Virus record (IMG/VR): IMGVR_UViG_3300045912_000220
DNA from: a virus
Direction: 5' to 3' (one strand)
Length of the DNA: 64,000 bases
Shown here: positions 1-40,800 of the stretch, in pieces
Position numbering within the stretch: the first letter of the stretch is position 1
How the letters are laid out: each line of letters opens with the position of its first letter
Notes under the pieces: model-generated
Told to the model about the DNA's origin: nothing
Databases searched by the model: none
Seen by the model: the letters and a program-made list of their open reading frames with translations, nothing else
Translations under genes and position numbers: made by a program

Positions 1-382
1 GAACCAGCGCATGTACTGGGGGCGGTGGCGCCGGTACTCGGAGCAGTTCCTAAAGGCCAACCCGTTCTGCGTGCATTGTGCAGCCCAAGGTGTCGACCAT
101 CCGGCCACGGTAACTGACCACGTGATACCGCACCGGGGCGACCACGCGCTGTTCTGGGACCCTGCGAACCATCAGCCGTTGTGCAAGCGCCACCACGATC
201 AGAAAACGGCCCGCGAGGACGGCGGCTTCGGCAATGCGCCGCTGGTGCGGGAACAGGCGAACCAAGGGCCAGCGCTGACCGAGTACGAGGAGTACGTTCG
301 GGCCATGGGCGGGGACGCGGTGCCCCCGGTGGTTCGGGCTTGGGTGCGACGCAGAAAGAAACGCAGAGGGAATCAGCCGTGA
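1..382 (+). CDS. HNH endonuclease (terminase-associated), 5'-truncated by window edge
   Basis: CVHC...ATVTDHVIPHRGD...NHQPLCKRHHDQKT HNH motif; full copy at 38573-39028. Confidence 0.9.
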   Translation, partial: NQRMYWGRWRRYSEQFLKANPFCVHCAAQGVDHPATVTDHVIPHRGDHALFWDPANHQPLCKRHHDQKTAREDGGFGNAPLVREQANQGPALTEYEEYVRAMGGDAVPPVVRAWVRRRKKRRGNQP

Positions 383-423
383 GCGCAGACGCAGCAACGC
401 AGGCCAGTCCGGACCCGGGCAAC

Positions 424-503
424 GGGGTAGGGGTGGGTCAAAAGTCCGAGGCGGTAACCAAACGAGCGCGCCCCCAGTCAAAAAAAGCCGCGCGCGAAAT
501 TGG
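424..503. other. Candidate cos (packaging) region
   Basis: GGGGTAGGGGTGGGTCAAAAGT...GAGCGCGCCCCCAGTCAAAAAAAGCCGCGCGCGAAATT after the HNH gene and upstream of terS, resembling from memory the layout of cos regions in HK97/P27/SfV-like phages. Confidence 0.5.
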
Positions 504-540
504 CGCAGGGGGTGGGGAATTGTCCGGGGGGGCGTCCCCG

Positions 541-2154
541 GTGGTCGACGGGCTGAAGCCGGCCGTGCCGGCGGTGCCGTGGCCCGCGGACAAGGTTTCC
601 CGGTGGCCTATCGACCGCCTGAAGGCGTACGCCCGGAACCCACGGACGCATACCGCCGAGCAGGTTGCCAAGCTGGCCCGCAGTCTCGAGGAGTTCGGGT
701 GGACGAACCCGGTGCTGGTCGACGAAGCCGGCGAAATCATCGCCGGCCACGGCCGGGTGCTGGCCGCGGAACAGCTGGGCTGGGATTCGGCCCCGGTGAT
801 GGTGGCCCGCGGGTGGAACGACGACCAAAAGCGGGCCTACCGGATCGCCGACAACCGGCTGGCGCTCGACGCCGGGTGGGACGACGAACTGCTGGCGGTG
901 GAACTGCGCGACCTGCAAGCCGCGGAATTCGACCTAGAGCTGACGGGCATGACCAACGCCGAGCTGGCCCAGCTACTGATCGTCAGCGGGGACGCCGAGC
1001 CCGAACCTGAGCCACCGCCGCCAGACGCGCAAGCGGTCGGGATCAGCCGGCCCGGCGAGGTATGGCTGTGTGGGTCCCATCGCGTTATCTGCGGGGACTC
1101 GACCGACCCGGCGACGCTGGCGGCGCTTATGGGCGAGGCGGTAGCGGCTCTGGTGCACGCCGACCCGCCATACGGGATGGGGAAGGAATCCGATGGGGTG
1201 GCGAACGACAACCTGTACGGCGACAAGCTGGACGCGTTCCAGCTGGCGTGGTGGCGGGCCTGCCGGCCGCACATTGCGCCGAACGCATCGGTGTACATCT
1301 GGGGCGCGGCGCTCGACCTATGGCGGTTGTGGTGGCGGGCGGGGCTTGGCGAGTCCGAGCCGCTGACCCTGCGGAACGAAATCGTCTGGGACAAGGGCAG
1401 CATCGCCGGCATGCGGTCCGAGGACCTGACGCAGTACCCGGAAGCCACGGAGCGCGCGCTGTTTTTCCAGCTCGGGCGCCACGTGTTCCTGATTAACCAG
1501 ACGAAGGACGACTACTGGGAGGGCTGGGAACCGTTGCGGCTCTGGCTCTGCGGCGAGCGTGACCGCATGGGCTGGGGGCCGGCCGACGTGAAGCGCATCT
1601 GCGACAATCACATGTACGGCCACTGGTTCGGGCGCTCGCAGTGGGCGTGGATCAACCGCGAGAATTACGAAAAGCTGCAGGCCGCGGCCGCTGGCCGCGC
1701 GTTCGTGAAGCCTTACGACGAGCTGCTTGAGGACTACCGCGAGCTGGCCCGGCAGTTCAACGGTGACGTCCGCGACCCGCGGCACGAGAACTACCGCGCC
1801 GTGCGCCCATACTTCGACAACACGCACGACACCATGCGCGACGTATGGCAGTTCCCGCGGGTTACTGGCGACGATCGGTTCGGCCACGCCACCCCGAAGC
1901 CCGTGGCCATGATCGCGCGGTGCCTGCTTTCGAGCGCGCGCGAGGGCGACGTGGTGCTGGAGCCGTTCGGCGGTACCGGCACGACCCTGATCGCGGCCGA
2001 GCGCACCCGCCGCCGCTGCTTCATCGCCGAGCTGGAGCCGGTATGGGCTGACGTGATTGTGCGCCGGTGGCAGAGCATGACCGGCGGCACAGCGGTGCTA
2101 GAGTCGACGGGCGAAACTTTCGAGGCGGTCGAGCGTGCGCGGTCGCAAGCCTAA
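541..2154 (+). CDS. ParB/Srx-like N-terminal domain fused to DNA N6-adenine/N4-cytosine methyltransferase (beta class)
   Basis: WPADKVSRWPIDRLKAYARNPRTH...IIAGHGR (ParB-like); ADPPY catalytic motif; HATPKP and VLEPFGGTGTT SAM-binding motif. Start uncertain (GTG 541 preferred; 379 possible). Confidence 0.88.
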   Translation: MVDGLKPAVPAVPWPADKVSRWPIDRLKAYARNPRTHTAEQVAKLARSLEEFGWTNPVLVDEAGEIIAGHGRVLAAEQLGWDSAPVMVARGWNDDQKRAYRIADNRLALDAGWDDELLAVELRDLQAAEFDLELTGMTNAELAQLLIVSGDAEPEPEPPPPDAQAVGISRPGEVWLCGSHRVICGDSTDPATLAALMGEAVAALVHADPPYGMGKESDGVANDNLYGDKLDAFQLAWWRACRPHIAPNASVYIWGAALDLWRLWWRAGLGESEPLTLRNEIVWDKGSIAGMRSEDLTQYPEATERALFFQLGRHVFLINQTKDDYWEGWEPLRLWLCGERDRMGWGPADVKRICDNHMYGHWFGRSQWAWINRENYEKLQAAAAGRAFVKPYDELLEDYRELARQFNGDVRDPRHENYRAVRPYFDNTHDTMRDVWQFPRVTGDDRFGHATPKPVAMIARCLLSSAREGDVVLEPFGGTGTTLIAAERTRRRCFIAELEPVWADVIVRRWQSMTGGTAVLESTGETFEAVERARSQA

Positions 2155-7698: not shown

Positions 7699-8100
7699 GT
7701 GTATCTGGTTCGTGCTCTGCGGCGCTTTGCGTCGGTCGACGAGGGGTGGATTCCCCGCGGCGCTACACTTAGCGTTCCCCGTGACCGCGCGTTCGAGCTG
7801 GCAGGGTCCGGCGTGGTCGAAATCCTCGAGGGCGACGATCGCGCGTGGAATTTCGAGACGAAAACCGAACCGCATGCATTGTCGCCAGTGGCCCCAGCGC
7901 CGCGCGCGTCGACGTTACCCGTACCGCCGGCTGGCCAACCGTCGCCGTTAACGACGGCTACCGCATCGCCGGCCACGCCGACCACGTCTACGCGGCCGAC
8001 GCGCGCTGGTGGGACTACCACGCGCCGGCGGTCCGTGCGCAGTGCCCCCGCGCGCAGCTCTGGACCTGCACCGGAGCCGCCGCCCGACGGCACGGACTGA
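7699..8100 (+). CDS. Small post-capsid protein with Pro/Thr-rich tail overlapping the next gene
   Basis: GTG start after GGAGAG; globular first ~58 aa; position typical of small head-associated genes. Confidence 0.6.
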   Translation: MYLVRALRRFASVDEGWIPRGATLSVPRDRAFELAGSGVVEILEGDDRAWNFETKTEPHALSPVAPAPRASTLPVPPAGQPSPLTTATASPATPTTSTRPTRAGGTTTRRRSVRSAPARSSGPAPEPPPDGTD

Positions 8101-8441
8101 ACCTGCTGCAGTATGAACGCGGGCCGGGCCTGAGCGTCCGGCCGGGCATCGTCCGGACCGGCGGTGCCGTGGGCAATTCCGGCGCCCAAGCCATCAACCT
8201 TGCCTACTTGCTCGGCGCCCGCCGGCTGGTGCTGATCGGGTTCGACATGGGCGAGCAGGGGCACTACTTCGGCGACCATCCGCCGGGCCTGCACGTCGTG
8301 AGCCCGTGGGAGCGTATGCGCGCCGGTATGGCCACGATGGCCGCGGAACTGGCCGCGCTGGGCGTGCAGGTGGTGAACTGTTCGCCGCTGACCGCCATCA
8401 CGTACTGGCCGCGCGCCGATCTACCCGACGTGCTGCCCTAG
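7845..8441 (+). CDS. Maf/MptE-like (DUF115-type) putative glycosyltransferase
   Basis: CIVASGPS, VAVND, DHVYAADARWW, NSGAQAINLAYLLGARRLVLIGFDM. Confidence 0.7.
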   Translation: MEFRDENRTACIVASGPSAARVDVTRTAGWPTVAVNDGYRIAGHADHVYAADARWWDYHAPAVRAQCPRAQLWTCTGAAARRHGLNLLQYERGPGLSVRPGIVRTGGAVGNSGAQAINLAYLLGARRLVLIGFDMGEQGHYFGDHPPGLHVVSPWERMRAGMATMAAELAALGVQVVNCSPLTAITYWPRADLPDVLP

Positions 8442-8472
8442 CGGGCCGCGCAACGGCCCGGCACAATGGGCC

Positions 8473-9291
8473 ATGCGCCGCGCGCATCTGCTGATCCGTC
8501 ACGAACCGCACTACCGGCGCGAAGCCTTCGCGGCTGGGTTGCAGGCGTGCGGCTATCAGGTGGCCGGCTACCCGCGCGAGCGCGCCCGCCCCGGCGACCT
8601 ACTGGTGATGTGGAACCGCTACGGCGCCAATCACGCGCTGGCCGAGCGCTTCGAGGCCGCCGGCGGCGTCGTGCTGGTGGCCGAGAACGGCCTCATGGGC
8701 CGTGATTCCCCGGGCGGCCCGTGGTACTCGCTGTTCCGCGGCGCGCCGGCGGGTGCCGGGTGGTCACCAGAGGGGCCGGCCGACCGGTGGTTCGCGCAGG
8801 GGTGGACGCTGGCCCCGTGGCGCGACATGCCAGCAGGCGACGTGCTGATCCTTGCGCAGCGCGGCATTGGCCCGCCCGGGGTGGCCCAGCCGCACGGCTG
8901 GCACCGCGACATCGCCCGTCGGCTGGCGCACTGGGGCCGCGTGCGCATCCGCGAACATCCCGGCGAGCGGCCGGCGCTGCCGCTGGCCGACGACCTAGCC
9001 AACGTCCGCGCCGTGGTCACGTGGGCCAGCGCGGCGGCGCTGAAGGCAATGGCGGCGGGGGTGCCGGTGTTCTACGGGTTCCGCAACTGGATAGGGAAGG
9101 GCTGCGGGCAATGGCTCGACGACGCGACGATCCGTGGGCCGTGCGCCCCGGTATTCCCCGACCGGACCGCGACCTGCGGGCTTGTTGGCTGGGCCACGTG
9201 GACGACCCGCGAGTTATCGACCGGCCAGCCTTTCCGGCACGTGCTCGGGTGGCCGTCTACCGCATCGCCGACCATCACCGATCACGCGTGA
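8473..9291 (+). CDS. KpsS/KpsC-like (capsule synthesis) GT-B glycosyltransferase 1
   Basis: VLILAQ...IREHPG...AVVTWASAAALKAMAAGVPVF, matching the HP and VVT-x-S-xx-EA-G-P pattern. Confidence 0.65.
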   Translation: MRRAHLLIRHEPHYRREAFAAGLQACGYQVAGYPRERARPGDLLVMWNRYGANHALAERFEAAGGVVLVAENGLMGRDSPGGPWYSLFRGAPAGAGWSPEGPADRWFAQGWTLAPWRDMPAGDVLILAQRGIGPPGVAQPHGWHRDIARRLAHWGRVRIREHPGERPALPLADDLANVRAVVTWASAAALKAMAAGVPVFYGFRNWIGKGCGQWLDDATIRGPCAPVFPDRTATCGLVGWATWTTRELSTGQPFRHVLGWPSTASPTITDHA

Positions 9292-10085
9292 TAAGCGACG
9301 CCATGGCCGAGGGCATCGCCGCCGCCGGGGACGTTCCGGTGCTGGCGTACGAGCACGAATTCGCCGGGCAGCCGGTCGCCGACGCTGCCGTGTTCTACGG
9401 CCTCGAGGGCCGCCTGCCGCACGTGTTCGCCGCCTACAAGGGGATCGGGCGCGCGGTGTACGTGGACCTTGGGTACTGGGATCGGCGCCGTGGCGGCCGT
9501 TTCGCCGGCTTCCACAAGATAGCGGTCAACGCCCGCCACCCGACGGCCTACTTCCGGCGGCCAGCCCACCCGCCTGACCGATTGCGCGCCGTGGCCGCGC
9601 CCATCAAGCCGTGGCGCAGGAACGGCCGGCATGTTCTGGTCGCTGGCATGGGCGACAAGGGCGCCAGAGCAGAGGGCTACGCCACCGAAGCGTGGGAGCG
9701 CTGGGCCATCGGCGAGCTGCAGCGGTATACCGCCCGCCCGATCGTTTACCGGCCGAAGCCCAGCTGGAAGAAGGCCCGCCCCATCGCTGGCACCATCTAC
9801 TCGCCGCGGACCCGGGAAGTCGCCGATGAGCTGCGCGACTGCTGGGCCGTGGTCACTCACCACAGCAACGTTGCCGTCGACGCGATCATGGCCGGCGTGC
9901 CGGCGTTCTGCTGGGAAGGGGTGGCCGCCTGTATGTCGGGGCAGGAGCTGGCTGGGATAGAGTCGCCACCGATGCCGGACGGCCGCGAGCAATGGGCTGC
10001 CGACATCGCCTACACGCAGTGGAGCGTCGAGGAAATGCGGACCGGCGCAGCGTGGCGCCATCTGCGGCAGGAGGGGCTTCTGTGA
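9249..10085 (+). CDS. KpsS/KpsC-like GT-B glycosyltransferase 2
   Basis: HVLVAG...IVYRPKP...AVVTHHSNVAVDAIMAGVPAF...AYTQWSVEEM; GTG start inferred. Confidence 0.65.
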   Translation: MAVYRIADHHRSRVISDAMAEGIAAAGDVPVLAYEHEFAGQPVADAAVFYGLEGRLPHVFAAYKGIGRAVYVDLGYWDRRRGGRFAGFHKIAVNARHPTAYFRRPAHPPDRLRAVAAPIKPWRRNGRHVLVAGMGDKGARAEGYATEAWERWAIGELQRYTARPIVYRPKPSWKKARPIAGTIYSPRTREVADELRDCWAVVTHHSNVAVDAIMAGVPAFCWEGVAACMSGQELAGIESPPMPDGREQWAADIAYTQWSVEEMRTGAAWRHLRQEGLL

Positions 10086-10945
10086 GGATCGTTTTCTGGC
10101 ATTCGGACAAGCCGCGCGAACGGCTGCTGGCCGATGCGTTCGCCGACGGTGCCCGGGTGCACGGCGACACGGTGGAGCTGCGGCCGCTGGAATCGGGTCC
10201 CGTGTCGCCGGCCGACGCCGACGTGGTGTGCATGGTCGGGGTGAAGTCGCGCGAGCTGTACCGCGTGCACCAGCGCGAGGGCATTCACGTCGTCTACTTC
10301 GACAAGGGCTACACGCGTCACGCCGCGCCGACGCCGGTGAAGCTCTGGGAGTATTGGCGGGTGTCGGTCGACCGGCATCATCCGACCGAAATGCTCATGG
10401 ACATTGCCCGCCCGATGGACCGCGCCGACCGGCTCGGGCTGGTCATGCAGCGATGGCGCAAGCCGACGAAGCGCGGCCACGTGCTGATCGCCGGCAGCTC
10501 GGCGAAGTACCACCAGTTCTATGGGCTGAAGGCGCCGACGCCGTACGCGCACAAGCTGGTGGCTGCCCTGCGCGAGCATACGGCACGGCCGATCACGTAC
10601 CGGCCCAAGCCCAGCTGGAAGGATGCGGAGCCAATCGAGGGGACCGAGTACAGCGGCACCGATCAGACGATCGAGCAAGCGCTGGCCGGCGCGCATTGTC
10701 TGGTGACCCACGGCAGCAACGCGGTGTTCGAGGCGGTGCTGCTCGGCATCCCGTGCGTGGTGCTGGGCGACGCGGTGGCCCGGCCAATCAGTAGCACCAG
10801 CGTCGCCGACGTTGAGGCGCCCTACTTGGCGACGTATGAACAGCGGCACCAGTGGCTTGCGAATTTGGCTTATTGGCAGTGGACGATGCCGGAACTGCAC
10901 CGCGGCGAGGCGTGGCAGTATCTGCGCCCGCTGATCTACCGATGA
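10082..10945 (+). CDS. KpsS/KpsC-like GT-B glycosyltransferase 3
   Basis: HVLIAG...ITYRPKP...LVTHGSNAVFEAVLLGIP...AYWQWTMPEL; GTGA overlap with previous stop. Confidence 0.65.
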   Translation: MRIVFWHSDKPRERLLADAFADGARVHGDTVELRPLESGPVSPADADVVCMVGVKSRELYRVHQREGIHVVYFDKGYTRHAAPTPVKLWEYWRVSVDRHHPTEMLMDIARPMDRADRLGLVMQRWRKPTKRGHVLIAGSSAKYHQFYGLKAPTPYAHKLVAALREHTARPITYRPKPSWKDAEPIEGTEYSGTDQTIEQALAGAHCLVTHGSNAVFEAVLLGIPCVVLGDAVARPISSTSVADVEAPYLATYEQRHQWLANLAYWQWTMPELHRGEAWQYLRPLIYR

Positions 10946-11547
10946 ACCGTCACACGCGTCCGTCGCAGGACTACGAGGCCGCCGTTCGCGCGGCGAGCCG
11001 TCATCACATGCGATCGAAAACGTACAGCGGGTTGCTGCTGCGCCCGCACGCGGCCGCCATCGGCGCCCTGATCCGTGAACACGGCTGCCGGTCAGTGCTC
11101 GACGTGGGCTGCGGAAAGGGCGAGCAGTACCGCTGGGTATCGCCCGGGCCGCCGCATTCGGCGGTGCCGTCCGGCCTGACGCTGGAGCAGTTCTGGGGCG
11201 TCGAGGTCACGAAATATGACCCGGCGGTGCCGGCGTACGTGGCCGAGCCGCGCGGCACGTTCGACGCGGTGCTGTGCACGCACGTGCTTGGATCGGTTCC
11301 CACCGTCGACCTGCCGTGGTTCATCGACCGGCTCTACGGGTGGGCCTCGCGGGTGGTCTACGTGGCGGAAAAGCTCGGCCCAGTCAAGAAAAGGGTGCTC
11401 GACGACGTGCCGGGCTTGCCGCGCGGGTACCAGCGCGCCGACTGGCTGCGAGTATTGGACCGGCCCGCGGGCCGTGGCCTGCACGTGGTCCTGTCAACAA
11501 CCGGCGACGAATCCGGGACCATCCGGGAACAGGTGCGCATCCGATGA
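10942..11547 (+). CDS. Class I SAM-dependent methyltransferase
   Basis: VLDVGCGKG, YDPAVP, FDAVLCTHVL; ATGA overlap. Confidence 0.85.
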   Translation: MNRHTRPSQDYEAAVRAASRHHMRSKTYSGLLLRPHAAAIGALIREHGCRSVLDVGCGKGEQYRWVSPGPPHSAVPSGLTLEQFWGVEVTKYDPAVPAYVAEPRGTFDAVLCTHVLGSVPTVDLPWFIDRLYGWASRVVYVAEKLGPVKKRVLDDVPGLPRGYQRADWLRVLDRPAGRGLHVVLSTTGDESGTIREQVRIR

Positions 11548-12542
11548 GAATTCGCGTCCTTGGCGGCGGGTGGTACGGCTGCCATCTGGCGCTGGCGATG
11601 CAGCGCGACGGGCACGAAGTCGAGCTGCACGAAATCGCCGACCGGCTGTTCGCTGGGGCCTCGGGTGGCAACCCGGCCCGGCTGCATCTGGGCTTCCACT
11701 ACCCGCGCTCGCGGCTCACTCGCGTGCTATGTCAGGAAAGCCACCGGCTGTTCATGGCCCAGTACGGCGCGCTCACGCGCACCGTGCCAGTCAACGTCTA
11801 CGCCGTCGCAGACGGCGAAAGCCTGATCGACTGGGGCACCTATCGGCAGGTGCTGCGCGGCGAGGTCGACTTCGTGGAGCTTGAGCGGCCGTCCGAGCTT
11901 GGGCTGGCGAACGTCGAGGGCGCCATGCTGACCGGTGAGCGGCACATTGTCATCGATGAGGCGCGCGCATGGTTCACGGAACAGCTGGGCGATGCGGTCC
12001 GGCTGAACATGCCCCCGGACGCCGACCCGGACGGCTGGGACTGGACGATCGATTGCACGTTCTGCGCCCGCGACGCCGAGCGGGTCGACCGGTACGAGCC
12101 GTGCGTAACGGCGCTGCTCGAGGGGCCAACCGATCGCGCGGTCACCATCATGGACGGCCCGTTCCCGTCCGTTTACCCGTGGAACGAACAGCAGGGCCTG
12201 TCGAGCCTGACCAGCGCCCGCTACACGCCGCTGGCCCGCTGCTCGACGTACTGGCATGCCCGGCAGCTGCTCGACGACTGTTCGGCCAATGACGCGATGC
12301 GCCGCGGGGTGCTAATGCTCGGCCAGATGGCGAAGTTCTGGCCGGCCGTGCAGGAGCTGTACCGCGTCGTCGACGCCCGCCTGACCATCCGCGCTCAGCC
12401 CATGAGCGGGTCGGACGCCCGGTTCGTCGACGTGGTGCGCCCGCTGCCCCGGACGCTGCGGGTGAGGGCGGGGAAAATCGACGCGATCCTGCACGCCGAA
12501 CAGCTGATCCGCGAGGCGATATGTTCACCGCAACCGGGGTAG
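11544..12542 (+). CDS. FAD-dependent oxidoreductase (DAO-like)
   Basis: N-terminal VLGGGWYGC dinucleotide motif, ASGGNPARLHLGFHYPRS; ATGA overlap. Confidence 0.82.
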   Translation: MRIRVLGGGWYGCHLALAMQRDGHEVELHEIADRLFAGASGGNPARLHLGFHYPRSRLTRVLCQESHRLFMAQYGALTRTVPVNVYAVADGESLIDWGTYRQVLRGEVDFVELERPSELGLANVEGAMLTGERHIVIDEARAWFTEQLGDAVRLNMPPDADPDGWDWTIDCTFCARDAERVDRYEPCVTALLEGPTDRAVTIMDGPFPSVYPWNEQQGLSSLTSARYTPLARCSTYWHARQLLDDCSANDAMRRGVLMLGQMAKFWPAVQELYRVVDARLTIRAQPMSGSDARFVDVVRPLPRTLRVRAGKIDAILHAEQLIREAICSPQPG

Positions 12543-13114
12543 GGTCAACGATCGTTCGCGAGCTGGCCACCATCACCGGCGAACACGCGCAGCGGATCGA
12601 GGGCGACCTAAGCCAGTACGGCGCCGAGCTGACCATCCCGGACGGTAGCCACCGGTACGTGTTAGCCGCCGGCGTCCTGCACGGTCGAGCGGTGCAGGAC
12701 CTGACCCCGGAACAGGTGCGCGAAACGCTGGCCGTTAATCTGGTCTCCGTTGTGCGAATCTGCGACACGGTGCTCCGGCGGGACCCGAAGGCCCGCATCT
12801 GCATTATCGGCAGCCAGTCCGGCTGCCGCTGGTCATTCGACGAGCTGTACGCGCTGGCCAAGGGAGCCGTCCACCGGTACGTTGAGCAGCGGCCGACGCG
12901 CTGCTGTCAGCAGCTGGTGGCCGTCGCGCCCCCGATCATCGCCGACTCCGGGATGACGATGCGGCGGCACGATTACCCAGCCGTGCTGGCAACCCGCCCG
13001 CACTGCCGGGCGGTCGACGTGGCCCGGGTGGTGCACCGGCTGTTGTGGACGCCGCGGGAGCTGGCGCCGTCGGGGCTGGTGGTGCCGGTGCCCGCTGGGA
13101 ACGTGATGGCATGA
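12521..13114 (+). CDS. Short-chain dehydrogenase/reductase-like protein
   Basis: TGVGSTI, AAGVL, VNL, IIGSQSG, YALAK (YxxxK). Confidence 0.72.
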   Translation: MFTATGVGSTIVRELATITGEHAQRIEGDLSQYGAELTIPDGSHRYVLAAGVLHGRAVQDLTPEQVRETLAVNLVSVVRICDTVLRRDPKARICIIGSQSGCRWSFDELYALAKGAVHRYVEQRPTRCCQQLVAVAPPIIADSGMTMRRHDYPAVLATRPHCRAVDVARVVHRLLWTPRELAPSGLVVPVPAGNVMA

Positions 13115-13719
13115 CGGACAAGCGGAAGCCGCCGCCGGACGCCGACCGGCCCCTGTACCTGCGGGCGCTGGCCTACGCGCGATCCGGTGCTGCCGCCATC
13201 GACGGCGGCGCCAACGTCGGCAACTGGTCACGGTGGATGGCTGAACACTTCGACGCGGTGCACGCGTTCGAGCCGAACCCGCGCTGCTGGCCCGCGTTCG
13301 AGGACATGCCGCCGGGCGTGGTGCTGCACCGCGCCGCGCTCGGCGAGGCCGCGGGCGAGGCGTGGCTGTACCAGCCACCGAAGCGCAGGGCCACCACGGC
13401 GGGCTACGTCGGGTCGGCAGAGCATGCCCCGCCCGTTGAGCGGCCACGCGCGGAGCCGGTCGCGGTGGCCACGGTCGACGGCCTCGGGCTGACCCGGTGC
13501 GGCCTGCTCAAGCTCGACATCGAGGGTGGCGAGCTGTACGCCCTGCGCGGCTCCCGGCAGACGCTGGCCCGCTGCCGACCCGTCGTCGTCGTCGAGGTAT
13601 CGGCGCTCAGCCACAAGCATTACGGGGTGCCAGAGGCCGACGTGCGCCGGCTGCTCAGCGACGCCCGGTACACGCGGCTAACGCTCGCCGCGCCGAACGA
13701 AATATGGGTGCCGCTTTGA
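13111..13719 (+). CDS. FkbM-family methyltransferase
   Basis: IDGGANVG, VHAFEPNP, LLKLDIEGGE, RPVVVVE; ATGA overlap. Confidence 0.9.
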   Translation: MTDKRKPPPDADRPLYLRALAYARSGAAAIDGGANVGNWSRWMAEHFDAVHAFEPNPRCWPAFEDMPPGVVLHRAALGEAAGEAWLYQPPKRRATTAGYVGSAEHAPPVERPRAEPVAVATVDGLGLTRCGLLKLDIEGGELYALRGSRQTLARCRPVVVVEVSALSHKHYGVPEADVRRLLSDARYTRLTLAAPNEIWVPL

Positions 13720-14450
13720 AGCTCACGATCTGCACGGGCTGGTCGCCGGCCGGGTACCACGAATACGGCCGACGGTTCGCCGAGTCATTCGCACGGCACT
13801 GGCCAGAGTCGGTCGAGCTGGTGGTCTACGGCGAGGAACCCGTACCGCTGCCCCGGGGCACGTTCCGGCCACTGTCGGACATCCCGGGGTGCGCCGAATG
13901 GCTGGCCGCCCACGATGCGCCGCGTTACCGGGGGCACCGTGACGGCCCGGACTACAAATGGCGGCTGGACGCGTGGAAGTTCAGCCGGCAGGGGTTCATC
14001 CCGGCCGCGGCTGCTGCGGAGCTGCCGGACACCGGCACCCCGCAGTTTCTCGCGTGGCTCGACGGGGATGTCATCACGCACCGCAAGGTGCCCGAGGGCT
14101 GGCCGCAGCTACTGCTGCCGCCGGGCTTCGACGTGGCCTATCTGGGCCGGCCGCCCAAGCACTCCGAGATTGGATTCCAGCTCTACCGGCTGAACGGACC
14201 GGGGTCGCCTGCGCTGCGGCTGCTCGAAATGTTCCGCGAGCTGTACCTGTCGGGCGCGGTATTCCGGCTGCGCGAATGGCACAGCGCGTTCGTGTGGGAT
14301 GAAGCCCGGGTGCGTAGCGGCGCCCGAGCATTCAACCTGACGCCGAACGGCCACGGCCACGTCTGGCACCAGTCGCCGCTGGCCCGCTACACCGACCATC
14401 TGAAGGGGAAGCGCAAAGCCTATGACCGCAGCCCAGAGCGCAGGCGATAG
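13716..14450 (+). CDS. GT-A fold glycosyltransferase (DxD)
   Basis: WLDGDV DxD motif, KFSRQG, HSAFVWD, DHLKG; TTGA overlap (ATG 13704 is an alternative start). Confidence 0.7.
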   Translation: MKLTICTGWSPAGYHEYGRRFAESFARHWPESVELVVYGEEPVPLPRGTFRPLSDIPGCAEWLAAHDAPRYRGHRDGPDYKWRLDAWKFSRQGFIPAAAAAELPDTGTPQFLAWLDGDVITHRKVPEGWPQLLLPPGFDVAYLGRPPKHSEIGFQLYRLNGPGSPALRLLEMFRELYLSGAVFRLREWHSAFVWDEARVRSGARAFNLTPNGHGHVWHQSPLARYTDHLKGKRKAYDRSPERRR

Positions 14451-15207
14451 CGGGCCGCTGACCGTCTACGTCGGCTGGGACCCGCGCGAGGTCGCAGCCT
14501 TCGACGTAACGGTGGCCACGCTGAAGGCCCGGGCGTCCGTCCCGGTCCGCGTGGTTCCGCTGAAACGCCGGCGGCTCGAGCGTGCCGGCCTGCTGACACG
14601 GGTGGTGCAGCCCGTAGCGGCGGGTGACCGGCGGCTGGTCAGCGGCCGCTGGTACACGTTCCCGGCCGGCACGCTCTGGGATGTCACCAGCGGCGCCCCG
14701 ATGGCCACCGAGTTCGCGGTTTCCCGGTTTCTCGTGCCGGCGCTGGCCCAGTCCGGCTGGGCGCTGTTCGTCGACTGCGACGTCGTGTTTCTCGGCGACG
14801 TGGCCGAGCTGCTTGAGGTGGCCGACCCGCAATACGCCGTGCAGGTGGTCAAGCACGGCGAGCTTCCCGGCGAAGGGCTGAAAATGGACGGGCAGCCGCA
14901 GCTGGCCTACCCGCGGAAAAACTGGTCGTCGGTGGTGCTCTGGAACTGCGACCACGCCGGGAACCGGCGCCTGACGCTACGCGAGGTCAACGGCTGGCCG
15001 GGCCGGGACCTGCACGCGTTCCGGTGGCTCGCCGACGAACATATCGGCAGCCTGCCGGCCGGCTGGAATTGGCTGGTCGGGGTGCAGCCTCGCCCGCCCG
15101 ACCCGAAGGTGGCACACTTCACGCTCGGCGGGCCATGGCTGCCCGGGTGGAAAGGTGCCGAGCATGACCAGCTCTGGGTATCAGCTGCGGCGACTGTTCG
15201 GCCCTGA
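14422..15207 (+). CDS. GT8-like glycosyltransferase
   Basis: VYVGWDPRE, TEFAVSRFLVP, FVDCDVVF, RKNWSSVVLWN, LPAGWNWLVG, HFTLGGPW. Confidence 0.82.
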   Translation: MTAAQSAGDSGPLTVYVGWDPREVAAFDVTVATLKARASVPVRVVPLKRRRLERAGLLTRVVQPVAAGDRRLVSGRWYTFPAGTLWDVTSGAPMATEFAVSRFLVPALAQSGWALFVDCDVVFLGDVAELLEVADPQYAVQVVKHGELPGEGLKMDGQPQLAYPRKNWSSVVLWNCDHAGNRRLTLREVNGWPGRDLHAFRWLADEHIGSLPAGWNWLVGVQPRPPDPKVAHFTLGGPWLPGWKGAEHDQLWVSAAATVRP

Positions 15208-28628: not shown

Positions 28629-28967
28629 TCAAAGCCCGCTGACGATGCGGGCTTTCTGTTTTTCATTGGCAACCCGGGCGGGGTGGTCCGGCCCGTGGCC
28701 AGCCTTCACGGCCTCGCGGGAGGCGCTTGCGATGGCCAGCTCGGCCTCGGTCGCATCGCGCAGCCTCAGCCATTGGACGGCGTACTCGCCGTCGCTGTCG
28801 CAATCGTCGGGAGCCCCGACCGGCGTTCGCTCGGTGCGGGTCTCGAGGACTGCGACCGGAAAACCGCCGAGCCGGAAAACTTCGCCGGCATTCCTGCGAT
28901 TCTTCGCTTGATACCAGCCGTCCACGCAGGCGGCGAGGATCGCGGGGTTCAGTGTGGTCGGGTTCAT
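28629..28967 (-). CDS. Hypothetical protein (112 aa)
   Basis: ATG with GAGG RBS, behind cassette P2. Confidence 0.7.
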   Translation of the reverse strand: MNPTTLNPAILAACVDGWYQAKNRRNAGEVFRLGGFPVAVLETRTERTPVGAPDDCDSDGEYAVQWLRLRDATEAELAIASASREAVKAGHGPDHPARVANEKQKARIVSGL

Positions 28968-28985
28968 TGTGAGCCTCGAAGGATC

Positions 28986-29049
28986 GGTGGTTTCGACGGT
29001 TCCAGCATCCCACGACGCGGCCCCGCCTACCGTGACCGAGGTCCCATTT
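28986..29049 (-). promoter_or_regulatory. Promoter cassette P2
   Basis: AAATGGGA-cctcgg-TCACG ... TGGGATGCT-GGAACCGTCGAAACCACC. Confidence 0.55.
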
Positions 29050-29388
29050 CTGGTGCCTGCGCGGCGTCCGGGCATAGTTCAACCCCTTTCCCCGGGGGCG
29101 GGGCGCGCTGGCCCTGCTGCCGGGTACTCGGGTCCCCTGCGCGGGTTTGCCGCGCGCCACCCCGGGAGGCGGTTCCGAATCGGGACCGGGTTGCAGAGGG
29201 ACGCAGCGCCCGGGTTAACGGTTTCGTGTGCGGCAGGCCCGTTTCGGCCCCGATGCTTTCGCGGCACGCGCGATGCGTGGCGGCAGGGTCGGGGGCGTAA
29301 GGGCTTGAAGCGGGAGTCGGGCGGGGATAGGATTCCCCCGTGGTTCCGCGTCGGCGCCCGGGCCCCCGGGTTTAGTGCCGACAAACAT

Positions 29389-29428
29389 GACGCCCCCAGT
29401 GTTTGCGCGCTGGGGGCGTCGACTTTTT
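29389..29428 (+). terminator. Intrinsic terminator-like hairpin
   Basis: GACGCCCCCAG-10nt-CTGGGGGCGTC followed by GACTTTTT. Confidence 0.65.
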
Positions 29429-29499
29429 AGCACTGGTGAAACGTCATGGGAAGCCCGGTCAGACAGGACCGCGCCGCCCGCCGGGTTCAGCCGGGATTA

Positions 29500-29515
29500 T
29501 GTTTCACGTGGAACC
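29500..29515. promoter_or_regulatory. parS-like centromere site
   Basis: TGTTTCACGTGGAACC, 15/16 identical to the bacterial chromosomal parS palindrome TGTTTCACGTGGAACA; intergenic. Confidence 0.65.
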
Positions 29516-29517
29516 TG

Positions 29518-29784
29518 TCACCGCACCAGCTCGCGCCCGTCGAGCCGGTAGATGGCCACCCGGACGTGGTTCCGGTAAGCGGCCACCATGCAGCGCTGCA
29601 TCCGGTTGTGCTGCGGAAAGCGGCGGGCGTAAACCCGCGCCCATCCGAGGGCATCGTCGACCGTGGCGAACGGTAGGACGCCGGAGACTGGCGTGAACGA
29701 ACGAACGCGCCCGCAGAAGCCCACCACTACCGGGTAGAACAGGATCGGCGCGCCTGCGGCCTTGGGCGGGCCGTCAGCGGTCAT
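29518..29784 (-). CDS. Hypothetical protein (88 aa)
   Basis: ATGA-coupled start, normal composition. Confidence 0.6.
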   Translation of the reverse strand: MTADGPPKAAGAPILFYPVVVGFCGRVRSFTPVSGVLPFATVDDALGWARVYARRFPQHNRMQRCMVAAYRNHVRVAIYRLDGRELVR

Positions 29785-29834
29785 CGGGCGTACCCGCAGC
29801 CGTAGATGCTGGCGGCCGGGCGGCGTTCCGCCAT
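29781..29834 (-). CDS. 17-aa coupling peptide MAERRPAASIYGCGYAR
   Basis: TGATG overlap at its start and ATGA overlap at its stop. Confidence 0.4.
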   Translation of the reverse strand: MAERRPAASIYGCGYAR

Positions 29835-30040
29835 CACTGCGCCACCGCCTGCGCGATGGCCCGCGCGGCGTGACCCCGAGTCGGGCAGCAGGCGATGTAC
29901 TCGCCCGCCACGATCGCCGCGTACGCCCGCGGCCCCTGCCGGACGATGGCCGTGCCATCGGCGAAAACTTCGGCGCCGAGAACGTCGCCGACGATCGTCG
30001 GGAAAGCGGCGCGGGCTTCGGAAGCGTTGAGAATCTGCAT
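29834..30040 (-). CDS. Hypothetical protein (68 aa)
   Basis: ATG with GGAG RBS, behind cassette P3. Confidence 0.7.
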   Translation of the reverse strand: MQILNASEARAAFPTIVGDVLGAEVFADGTAIVRQGPRAYAAIVAGEYIACCPTRGHAARAIAQAVAQ

Positions 30041-30056
30041 GGCGGAAGTCTCCGTG

Positions 30057-30122
30057 GGTGGGGTTTCGACGGTTCCTATACTTGCATGGCGCGCAAACGA
30101 AAACCGGCACCCGGTCACACTT
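30057..30122 (-). promoter_or_regulatory. Promoter cassette P3 with TTGC-N7-GCAA operator (30082-30096)
   Basis: AAGTGTGA-ccgggt-GCCGG ... TTGCGCGCCATGCAAGTAT-AGGAACCGTCGAAACCCCACC. Confidence 0.6.
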
Positions 30123-30127
30123 TCGGC

Positions 30128-30418: not shown

Positions 30419-30469
30419 GCAGTCGCGCGGGTGCCGTCGACTGCCGGCGCCGGCGTCGCGGGAATCGAA

Positions 30470-30515
30470 AACTGCGGAGCGCGTCACGGTCTGCTCCGGG
30501 GCTGCTCGATACAGT
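30470..30515 (+). promoter_or_regulatory. Rightward promoter: CRP-like site at about -41.5 plus -10 TACAGT
   Basis: TGCGG-agcgcg-TCACG (30473-30488), TACAGT at 30510-30515. Confidence 0.5.
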
Positions 30516-30551
30516 GCAGTCGTGCCGGGATGTTCCGGCGAGGAGAGCGGA

Positions 30552-30824
30552 ATGACGGACCACGACCCAAACGCGAAGTACCGGATCGCCACGTTCACGG
30601 TTGAGAACACGACGATTCGGGTCTACCTGCTGAACCCCGGCGAAGCGTTCGAGCGCTTCGGCGGCCTGCAGCGCAGCCTTCCGGTGACCAAAACCGCGTC
30701 GCTGATTGTCAGCACGTCGGACCATCGCGGCCGCAAGGACATGGAGTACGACCTGCGCGGCCAGAGCGGCGACGACATGTGGGGTTGGATTTTCGACATC
30801 TGCCGGCAGTCCGCAGCCAAGTAG
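30552..30824 (+). CDS. Hypothetical protein (90 aa), lone rightward gene
   Basis: ATG with GAGGAG RBS, protein-like composition. Confidence 0.75.
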   Translation: MTDHDPNAKYRIATFTVENTTIRVYLLNPGEAFERFGGLQRSLPVTKTASLIVSTSDHRGRKDMEYDLRGQSGDDMWGWIFDICRQSAAK

Positions 30825-30870
30825 GCTAAACAGGCCGGGCACGTCACGTTCTGGTCGTGGCGTGCTCGGC

Positions 30871-32849: not shown

Positions 32850-33197
32850 CTAGCGGTACCAGTCATCCGGGCCATACCCGGGGTCGTCGTCGTCGTCGAC
32901 GGGGGGCAAGTCGAGGGTGCGCTGGGGTGGCGGGGTGGCCTCGTCGGGCAGCACCGGCCTCGAGGGCCAGCGGACCCGGGGCGCGTGCAGCTGGGCGTAG
33001 TATTCAGCGATGCGGGCAAGCCGGACGGCCACCGGCAGCTCGGGCGGGTCGCCCGGCAGACTGAAGTCGATGACGCCCCGGCGCTTGCGCGCCAGCCAGT
33101 CAACCCCGGTCGGCGGCGGGGTCGACCGGCTGCGGCTCGGGGCGGGGCGCGTAGAAGTCGGGGTCGTAGATCGCCCCGAGCGGGATTTCGCCGGCAT
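32850..33197 (-). CDS. Hypothetical protein with acidic C-terminus (start uncertain)
   Basis: C-terminal ~80 aa is protein-like (DDDDDPGYGPDDWYR); the N-terminus overlaps the HTH gene. Confidence 0.4.
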   Translation of the reverse strand: MPAKSRSGRSTTPTSTRPAPSRSRSTPPPTGVDWLARKRRGVIDFSLPGDPPELPVAVRLARIAEYYAQLHAPRVRWPSRPVLPDEATPPPQRTLDLPPVDDDDDPGYGPDDWYR

Positions 33198-33351
33198 AAA
33201 AGTCGAACAGGGCGCGCGCGAGGGGCCGCTTCGGTACCTGCTGTCCCTTTTCGATTCGGGACAGGTTCGCCTGATCCGTGCCGACCCGGCGGGCCACGTC
33301 GTCGAGACTGAGGCCCCGAGCGCGGCGCAGGCGTGTCATCAGCGTGTCCAC
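33100..33351 (-). CDS. XRE/Cro-family HTH transcriptional regulator
   Basis: LRRARGLSLDDVARRVGTDQANLSRIEKGQQVP; start GTG 33351 or ATG 33339. Confidence 0.92.
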   Translation of the reverse strand: MDTLMTRLRRARGLSLDDVARRVGTDQANLSRIEKGQQVPKRPLARALFDFYAGEIPLGAIYDPDFYAPRPEPQPVDPAADRG

Positions 33352-38572: not shown

Positions 38573-39028
38573 ATGCCGACACGTGCCCCGACCCACAAGC
38601 CCCAGCCCGCCCAGCTGCGGCAAGCCCGGCGGGCCAGCAACCCGGAGAACCAGCGCATGTACTGGGGGCGGTGGCGCCGGTACTCGGAGCAGTTCCTAAA
38701 GGCCAACCCGTTCTGCGTGCATTGTGCAGCCCAAGGTGTCGACCATCCGGCCACGGTAACTGACCACGTGATACCGCACCGGGGCGACCACGCGCTGTTC
38801 TGGGACCCTGCGAACCATCAGCCGTTGTGCAAGCGCCACCACGATCAGAAAACGGCCCGCGAGGACGGCGGCTTCGGCAATGCGCCGCTGGTGCGGGAAC
38901 AGGCGAACCAAGGGCCAGCGCTGACCGAGTACGAGGAGTACGTTCGGGCCATGGGCGGGGACGCGGTGCCCCCGGTGGTTCGGGCTTGGGTGCGACGCAG
39001 AAAGAAACGCAGAGGGAATCAGCCGTGA
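38573..39028 (+). CDS. HNH endonuclease (terminase-associated), full-length
   Basis: HNH motif as above; spans the unit junction. Confidence 0.92.
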   Translation: MPTRAPTHKPQPAQLRQARRASNPENQRMYWGRWRRYSEQFLKANPFCVHCAAQGVDHPATVTDHVIPHRGDHALFWDPANHQPLCKRHHDQKTAREDGGFGNAPLVREQANQGPALTEYEEYVRAMGGDAVPPVVRAWVRRRKKRRGNQP

Positions 39029-39069
39029 GCGCAGACGCAGCAACGCAGGCCAGTCCGGACCCGGGCAAC

Positions 39070-39149
39070 GGGGTAGGGGTGGGTCAAAAGTCCGAGGCGG
39101 TAACCAAACGAGCGCGCCCCCAGTCAAAAAAAGCCGCGCGCGAAATTGG
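39070..39149. other. Candidate cos region (copy 2)
   Basis: Copy of 424-503. Confidence 0.5.
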
Positions 39150-39186
39150 CGCAGGGGGTGGGGAATTGTCCGGGGGGGCGTCCCCG

Positions 39187-40800
39187 GTGGTCGACGGGCT
39201 GAAGCCGGCCGTGCCGGCGGTGCCGTGGCCCGCGGACAAGGTTTCCCGGTGGCCTATCGACCGCCTGAAGGCGTACGCCCGGAACCCACGGACGCATACC
39301 GCCGAGCAGGTTGCCAAGCTGGCCCGCAGTCTCGAGGAGTTCGGGTGGACGAACCCGGTGCTGGTCGACGAAGCCGGCGAAATCATCGCCGGCCACGGCC
39401 GGGTGCTGGCCGCGGAACAGCTGGGCTGGGATTCGGCCCCGGTGATGGTGGCCCGCGGGTGGAACGACGACCAAAAGCGGGCCTACCGGATCGCCGACAA
39501 CCGGCTGGCGCTCGACGCCGGGTGGGACGACGAACTGCTGGCGGTGGAACTGCGCGACCTGCAAGCCGCGGAATTCGACCTAGAGCTGACGGGCATGACC
39601 AACGCCGAGCTGGCCCAGCTACTGATCGTCAGCGGGGACGCCGAGCCCGAACCTGAGCCACCGCCGCCAGACGCGCAAGCGGTCGGGATCAGCCGGCCCG
39701 GCGAGGTATGGCTGTGTGGGTCCCATCGCGTTATCTGCGGGGACTCGACCGACCCGGCGACGCTGGCGGCGCTTATGGGCGAGGCGGTAGCGGCTCTGGT
39801 GCACGCCGACCCGCCATACGGGATGGGGAAGGAATCCGATGGGGTGGCGAACGACAACCTGTACGGCGACAAGCTGGACGCGTTCCAGCTGGCGTGGTGG
39901 CGGGCCTGCCGGCCGCACATTGCGCCGAACGCATCGGTGTACATCTGGGGCGCGGCGCTCGACCTATGGCGGTTGTGGTGGCGGGCGGGGCTTGGCGAGT
40001 CCGAGCCGCTGACCCTGCGGAACGAAATCGTCTGGGACAAGGGCAGCATCGCCGGCATGCGGTCCGAGGACCTGACGCAGTACCCGGAAGCCACGGAGCG
40101 CGCGCTGTTTTTCCAGCTCGGGCGCCACGTGTTCCTGATTAACCAGACGAAGGACGACTACTGGGAGGGCTGGGAACCGTTGCGGCTCTGGCTCTGCGGC
40201 GAGCGTGACCGCATGGGCTGGGGGCCGGCCGACGTGAAGCGCATCTGCGACAATCACATGTACGGCCACTGGTTCGGGCGCTCGCAGTGGGCGTGGATCA
40301 ACCGCGAGAATTACGAAAAGCTGCAGGCCGCGGCCGCTGGCCGCGCGTTCGTGAAGCCTTACGACGAGCTGCTTGAGGACTACCGCGAGCTGGCCCGGCA
40401 GTTCAACGGTGACGTCCGCGACCCGCGGCACGAGAACTACCGCGCCGTGCGCCCATACTTCGACAACACGCACGACACCATGCGCGACGTATGGCAGTTC
40501 CCGCGGGTTACTGGCGACGATCGGTTCGGCCACGCCACCCCGAAGCCCGTGGCCATGATCGCGCGGTGCCTGCTTTCGAGCGCGCGCGAGGGCGACGTGG
40601 TGCTGGAGCCGTTCGGCGGTACCGGCACGACCCTGATCGCGGCCGAGCGCACCCGCCGCCGCTGCTTCATCGCCGAGCTGGAGCCGGTATGGGCTGACGT
40701 GATTGTGCGCCGGTGGCAGAGCATGACCGGCGGCACAGCGGTGCTAGAGTCGACGGGCGAAACTTTCGAGGCGGTCGAGCGTGCGCGGTCGCAAGCCTAA
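39187..40800 (+). CDS. ParB-like/DNA methyltransferase (copy 2)
   Basis: Copy of 541-2154. Confidence 0.88.
   Translation: MVDGLKPAVPAVPWPADKVSRWPIDRLKAYARNPRTHTAEQVAKLARSLEEFGWTNPVLVDEAGEIIAGHGRVLAAEQLGWDSAPVMVARGWNDDQKRAYRIADNRLALDAGWDDELLAVELRDLQAAEFDLELTGMTNAELAQLLIVSGDAEPEPEPPPPDAQAVGISRPGEVWLCGSHRVICGDSTDPATLAALMGEAVAALVHADPPYGMGKESDGVANDNLYGDKLDAFQLAWWRACRPHIAPNASVYIWGAALDLWRLWWRAGLGESEPLTLRNEIVWDKGSIAGMRSEDLTQYPEATERALFFQLGRHVFLINQTKDDYWEGWEPLRLWLCGERDRMGWGPADVKRICDNHMYGHWFGRSQWAWINRENYEKLQAAAAGRAFVKPYDELLEDYRELARQFNGDVRDPRHENYRAVRPYFDNTHDTMRDVWQFPRVTGDDRFGHATPKPVAMIARCLLSSAREGDVVLEPFGGTGTTLIAAERTRRRCFIAELEPVWADVIVRRWQSMTGGTAVLESTGETFEAVERARSQA

Follow-up and report, generated by a model that had tools for sequence, protein, structure and literature searches.

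A host-type parS site on an integrase-less siphovirus genome as a probable loading site for host ParB

A 16-bp palindromic element, TGTTTCACGTGGAACC, is positioned at 29500-29515 (14-bp core, 29501-29514) of the 64-kb viral DNA analyzed here, the whole stretch of which we call the window, and by its sequence this element is a genuine chromosomal-type parS. It is probably a loading site for the ParB protein of the bacterial host, and partition of the phage DNA as an episome is a plausible use for it. The explanation that we prefer, tentatively and with a confidence that falls a little short of even, is that the element is an orphan host-type parS that loads host ParB for the positioning or partition of unintegrated phage DNA.

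The element was compared with the parS consensus sequences listed in PMC7022226. It agrees at every base with NGTTNCACGTGAAACN, and its 14-bp core fits GTTYCACGTGRAAC, the core form used for actinobacteria, exactly. It shows one mismatch, at the outermost base, to the published consensus TGTTNCACGTGAAACA and two to the perfect palindrome TGTTTCACGTGAAACA; thus an earlier, sequence-only reading of this DNA was right to place a parS-like sequence here, and its count of one mismatch is correct against TGTTNCACGTGAAACA and too low against the perfect palindrome. Read on the minus strand, the site becomes GGTTCCACGTGAAACA, in which base 1 is the sole difference from TGTTCCACGTGAAACA, the parS inside the Bacillus subtilis parB gene (PMC4333373). 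Both half-sites, GTTTCAC on the left and GTTCCAC on the right (minus strand), are among the variants reported to be bound by ParB (PMC7022226), and the outer base of parS differs among the consensus sequences of different species (PMC7022226, PMC4333373). In addition, bases G1 and A6 of the half-site, by which parS is told apart from the Noc-binding site (PMC7383237), are intact in both halves, which read G..(T/C)CAC; by the same rule a Noc site was rejected, as its key bases misfit. A LexA or CRP/FNR site was likewise dismissed by eye on geometry or key bases, and a likeness to the XerD arm of dif (TTATGTT) was dropped, with 8/11 bases matching by eye and no XerC arm. No other site within 3 mismatches was found anywhere in the genome, and an apparent excess of the GTTCCAC half-site (11 observed vs 3.6 expected) is explained by higher-order composition and TGG-AAC codon pairs. 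Rather than an ori-proximal cluster next to parAB, there is a single site on a phage genome without parAB, and because it is single, not ori-proximal and without parAB, the element, which resembles functional parS in its sequence, is not a chromosomal centromere.

The window holds a single phage genome of 38,646 bp that is wrapped, as bases 1-25,354 recur exactly from 38,647; the genome is complete and circularly closed or permuted, and its G+C content is ~69%. Pfam and PHROG scans of essentially every plausible ORF identified packaging and head genes (small and large terminase, portal, S78 protease and HK97-type capsid), tail-side genes (connector, head completion, tail completion, tail tube and tape measure) and RcGTA-like distal tail genes (DUF2460, phiJL001 gp84/BR0599, NlpC/P60 and Phage-tail_3/Rcc01698_C) together with a DUF2793 fibre, so that on gene content the phage is a siphovirus with an RcGTA-like tail. 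The remaining genes include a lysin with GH108 and PG_binding_3 domains, a second methylase, RusA, HNH and many small ORFans. A cluster of roughly 7 kb (7845-15207), with genes for glycosyltransferase-like proteins, methyltransferases (FkbM, Methyltransf_23), an FAD-oxidoreductase and a short-chain dehydrogenase, lies as an insertion between the genes for the capsid and the head-tail connector.

The same scans of essentially all ORFs found neither integrase nor protelomerase, in agreement with the missing integrase of the sequence-only reading, and no recognisable replication initiator, helicase, primase, polymerase or recombinase in the closed 38.6-kb genome. Its DNA-metabolism genes are confined to two methylases, RusA and HNH. 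A single DNA-binding regulator could be recognised, a 79-aa XRE/Cro-type helix-turn-helix (HTH) protein (33100-33339, minus strand) at a divergent promoter region, and this small regulator and the missing integrase are the sole hints of a temperate or episomal life.

The host is probably a high-GC proteobacterium (Pseudomonadota), more specifically an alphaproteobacterium; the affinity to Pseudomonadota is drawn from the tail and lysin types and from the nearest capsid and lysin clusters. Among 185,579 species genomes of GTDB no close prophage relatives were detected, the nearest portal proteins being 32-37% identical. The parS consensus in question is used by most of Pseudomonadota (PMC7022226). 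As the RcGTA-like tail genes and the GH108 lysin suggest a Gram-negative, non-sporulating type of host, entrapment of the phage genome in a spore would not be a possible payoff of the site.

Whether the phage encodes a reader of its own site turns on one gene. A protein of 657 aa (591 aa as called; 181-2154, plus strand, with a second wrapped copy at 38827-40800) fuses a ParB_N domain, of the CTPase fold, to an N6/N4 DNA methyltransferase. It aligns solely to the N-terminal CTPase fold of Noc/ParB (residues 7-97 of 7NG0), with GHGR at the position of the ParB GERR motif; no match to HTH, ParB DNA-binding or dimerisation domains was found in it, and the remainder is a DNA methylase. Fusions of ParB_N to a methylase are frequent in phages and unrelated to segregation, according to a 2025 survey (PMC12704722). 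Since only the N-terminal fold matches and this fusion type is common in phages, the protein is, on its domain content, not a partition ParB, and as it has no HTH or ParB DNA-binding domain it was rejected as the reader of the site. Neither ParA nor an HTH-type ParB was found in the genome by the Pfam and PHROG scans of essentially all ORFs, and tblastn of a Brucella ParB against the phage genome gave no match. Therefore the description of a phage without its own parAB stands for ParA and HTH-type ParB and has to be amended for the ParB_N domain in the methylase fusion. A cassette of the P1/N15/RedRock type, with adjacent parA and parB and cognate repeats, does not surround the site either, the flanking genes being ORFans of 68-112 aa.

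The site lies at the end of a short leftward operon that departs from a divergent promoter region (30041-30127) and consists of a 68-aa ORFan (29834-30040, minus strand) as its first gene and an 88-aa ORFan (29518-29784, minus strand; ORF 29518-29784/29958) as its last. Only 2 bp (29516-29517), as the sequence-only reading had noted, separate the site from the stop codon of the latter at 29518-29520 (TCA, that is, TGA on the minus strand). On its other side extends a non-coding stretch (28968-29517, delimited by gene calls, a GC3 frame plot and identity runs) that is followed downstream by a 112-aa ORFan (28629-28967, minus strand). The stretch measures 442 bp up to an ATG at 29075, or 550 bp when the next gene starts at 28967, and by either measure it is the largest visible gap, as had been claimed; the extension of the ORF to the ATG at 29075 is probably spurious, because gene calls and a homologue in JGI data place the start at 28967. 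An exact 15-nt repeat, GGAACCGTCGAAACC, occurs at 28989-29003 and 30062-30076 (minus strand), in each case 22 nt upstream of the start codon of a leftward gene (ATG at 28967 and 30040), and is probably a shared promoter or leader element.

Between the parS and a conserved non-coding block lies a GC-rich hairpin with a T-run (29388-29430). The hairpin (29388-29421) lies ~70 bp towards the left; TTTTT comes after it on the plus strand, and a weaker U-tract accompanies it on the minus strand. Shuffled sequence folds much less well than this hairpin (z -3.6), and in a diverged relative of the phage (L003, below) its stem carries a compensatory C-G to G-C change. It is probably a real terminator and bidirectional, and by the position of this hairpin the parS sits within the 3' end of the leftward operon, between stop codon and terminator. 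On the plus strand, 29350-29424 gives a sub-threshold Rfam match to the P22 sar antisense RNA (31 bits vs a gathering score of 43), and 29350-29430 comprises two hairpins and a T-run, a combination that could represent either a bidirectional terminator or a small RNA. A solitary half-site, GTTTCAC (29436-29442, minus strand), lies 58 bp from the parS and is one of only three copies of this heptamer in the whole genome; its significance is weak, and it is kept in L003 but within a generally conserved block. The non-coding stretch (28968-29517) contains no DnaA boxes, CtrA boxes or AT-rich unwinding element, and an origin adjoining the site was rejected on these grounds.

The phage lineage is very rare in public data. 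No relatives were found in INPHARED by megablast or blastn, or in IMG/VR through four neighbouring proteins or a 24-mer anchor; in JGI metagenomes a first anchor gave 0 matches and a second gave 11, all of them chance matches of 21-24 nt. For each of three neighbours (the 88-aa, 112-aa and DUF6900 proteins), 5.8 billion proteins yielded a single homologue besides the protein itself. Near-identical copies are present on Logan contigs of two other runs (L001 and L002), and a single diverged relative, L003, shares the region at ~86% DNA identity. The L003 version of the site is TGTTTCACGTGGAACG, in which 15/16 bases are kept and the outermost base is changed, a change that falls on the base that varies between the consensus sequences of species. 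The flanks have diverged to ~60% identity, over 3 bp on the side of the stop codon and over a block of 33 bp on the other. The perfect run over the site is 20 bp long (29495-29514), and the same 800-bp alignment contains a dozen others measuring 15-29 bp and two longer ones, of 57 and 134 bp; as equally long perfect runs are so common, the conservation of the site is consistent with selection and is modest evidence for it, short of proof. Conservation in relatives, proposed earlier as a check on the site, is thus borne out in the retention of the sequence and does not rise above the local background, in the one informative relative.

Other features of these alignments concern the region more widely. 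The two longest runs (57 and 134 bp) belong to a non-coding block (29057-29251) that is almost 100% identical to L003, between flanking genes that are only ~82% identical; it has no Rfam match, and its folding is no better than that of shuffled sequence on either strand. L003 lacks the 90-aa rightward gene of the window (30552-30824; compared region 30449-30867) and has other small genes in the interval from the DUF6900 gene to the homologue of the 88-aa gene, and these gene differences indicate mosaic exchange in the early-left region. A homologue of the 112-aa gene is also found, in a different mosaic context without parS (L011), which indicates that the site is not tied to that gene, and nothing more.

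How often such a sequence would arise by chance was estimated in several ways. Base composition predicts 2e-4 occurrences of the degenerate core per genome, and 2/3000 first-order Markov genomes contained a match, giving an overall chance of 2e-4 to 7e-4 per genome. Five bacterial genomes (~30 Mb) contain 14 copies of the pattern, every one in a cluster of 2-4 sites, the arrangement typical of chromosomal parS, and 0 copies of a reversed control; one Gemmatimonadales genome holds the identical hybrid variant, GTTTCACGTGGAAC, inside such a cluster. As many windows were scanned, a per-genome probability of ~5e-4 would by itself leave room for a fluke, and the enrichment among viruses was therefore examined. 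The perfect parS TGTTTCACGTGAAACA is present in at least 119 IMG/VR contigs (L023-L141), compared with 2 (L142-L143) for a control in which the palindrome was reversed at the same composition, an enrichment in viral contigs of at least 60-fold. Among the matches listed, 26/119 loci contain 2-5 copies. No full ParB was found in these 119 listed loci (1.06 Mb, ~±5 kb per site) by tblastn with a single Brucella ParB as query, a search that sets a lower bound on the presence of ParB there. These observations suggest that host-type parS without a nearby ParB is recurrent in viral contigs and looks widespread, and, given the enrichment together with the lack of a nearby ParB, it is unlikely that the class as a whole reflects chance or neutrality.

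In the explanation that we prefer, dimers of the host chromosomal ParB would recognise both half-sites through their helix-turn-helix domains, and the bound ParB would take up CTP and form closed clamps that slide a few kb along the neighbouring phage DNA. The phage genome could in this way be coupled to the partners of the host chromosome origin, namely the ParA gradient, polar anchors or SMC loading. As integrase, partition and recognisable replication genes are all missing, the likeliest benefit would be that phage DNA which stays unintegrated is positioned or partitioned as the cells grow and divide. The result would be a carrier or pseudolysogenic state, the non-sporulating counterpart of the Spo0J-dependent spore entrapment of phi29. 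Such a carrier state fits the missing integrase. Counting against it are the presence of one site only, compared with five in phi29 and with clusters in chromosomes, and the lack of origin-like features adjoining the site.

That host ParB binds the site for a purpose other than partition seems unlikely to us, though this alternative ranks first among the rivals. It shares the sequence evidence of the partition explanation. As a decoy, replicated sites would titrate ParB and its partners (MipZ, SMC) and so disturb host segregation or division; as a silencer, spreading ParB clamps would dampen the flanking leftward operons and the divergent promoter ~0.5 kb away. Silencing is compatible with the position of the site, which has a leftward operon on each side and the divergent promoter region less than 0.6 kb away, and it is also favoured by the spreading of Caulobacter ParB over ~2 kb from a single parS (PMC5815017) and by the silencing of genes near parS upon ParB overproduction in Pseudomonas aeruginosa (PMC7022226). 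Moreover, with no visible lysogeny module the phage may be simply lytic, and partition is of little value to a lytic phage. However, nothing in the sequence is specific to titration or silencing, and a single site per genome would be a weak sink for ParB until copy number is high.

We rate lower, as rather improbable, the possibility that the reader of the palindrome is not host ParB. A phage protein could take this role (one of the ORFans, the XRE regulator or the ParB_N-methylase), or the site could belong to a promoter, with CATAAT directly beside it on the minus strand, or to an RNA stem, in which it pairs with the inverted half-site 58 nt away. In line with this, the conserved 20-bp run takes in the flanking ATAATC, a 9-bp inverted repeat (29436-29444 vs 29499-29507) pairs in folds of both strands, and the neighbouring ORFs have no assigned function. 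Each candidate nevertheless meets an objection. The RNA stem was rejected, since shuffled sequence folds just as well as the sequence with the parS half-site stem (z -0.7 and -0.9); no acceptable -35 at a spacing of 16-18 bp was seen by eye; the genome offers a phage regulator no second copy of the motif; and the methylase fusion shows no detectable HTH or ParB DNA-binding domain. Without ParB, an exact 14-bp consensus match with a chance of ~2e-4 would be a coincidence that nothing explains, and it is for this unexplained match that both this possibility and that of chance are rated below ParB binding. A chance or neutral occurrence with no selected function, to which host ParB may bind incidentally, is just as improbable: given very many windows scanned, matches at ~5e-4 per genome will appear, and the site is single and its conservation in L003 not above local background, but perfect parS is at least 60 times commoner than its reversal in viral contigs, bacterial genomes show essentially no background outside the clusters of 2-4 sites, and the sole change in L003 affects a base that varies among species' consensuses.

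If host ParB does load at the site, the piracy of host centromeres would reach beyond phi29, the one case studied so far (spore entrapment in Bacillus), to a tailed phage whose host is non-sporulating and probably a proteobacterium. Stable pseudolysogeny would then have a minimal mechanism that needs neither integrase nor par genes. The IMG/VR count (at least 119 vs 2, with no ParB nearby among the matches listed) suggests a common and under-described phenomenon, and it weighs more than one weakly conserved site. As markers, such sites would be an inexpensive means of predicting carrier-state phages, and they can narrow host range to lineages that bear ParB. The strongest form of the proposal is that a phage of a Gram-negative, non-sporulating host, without integrase, partition or recognisable replication genes, is inherited as a free episome solely by means of one pirated 16-bp centromere that recruits host ParB and ParA, and that centromere piracy is then widespread and largely undescribed (at least 119 contigs without ParB vs 2 for the control); in this full form we consider it unlikely.

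The principle is already known from phi29 and Nf, and the idea is not new. In B. subtilis, Lin and Grossman (1998) reportedly found that a single chromosomal parS gave an unstable plasmid ParB/ParA-dependent stability; theirs was an engineered laboratory plasmid, not a natural virus. Compared with chromosomal parS, the phage site belongs to the same 16-bp palindrome family and both its half-sites are among the bound variants, whereas chromosomal sites form ori-proximal clusters beside parAB and the phage site is single and without parAB (PMC7022226). P1, N15 and integrase-less mycobacteriophages rely on ParABS for the extrachromosomal maintenance of an integrase-less genome, but such plasmid prophages encode their own ParA and ParB and element-specific parS repeats, which are absent here (PMC7157519). 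SGI1 (PMC10954446) is similar to the phage in carrying the cis site only and using the ParAB of another replicon; there, however, the pirated system is the parABS of an IncC plasmid and not that of the chromosome, and the element is an integrative island.

The closest parallel is phi29. Five host parS sites and Spo0J mediate segregation of the phi29 genome into the forespore (PMC2731898), and both phi29 and Nf carry host parS sites used through Spo0J (Meijer et al. 2005, via PMC2731898). These phages share with ours a host-type ParB/Spo0J sequence on a phage without its own ParB, and the handling of an unintegrated phage genome by the host segregation machinery, which is proposed likewise here. 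Our phage, too, has no HTH-type ParB or ParA of its own. phi29 is a small lytic podovirus with protein-primed linear DNA, five sites and a sporulating Firmicute host, whereas the present phage is a 38.6-kb siphovirus with an RcGTA-like tail and a GH108 lysin, and in place of multiple sites and spore entrapment it has one site and, probably, a non-sporulating host. The site therefore belongs with the orphan host parS of the phi29 type and differs from it in copy number, phage type and host biology.
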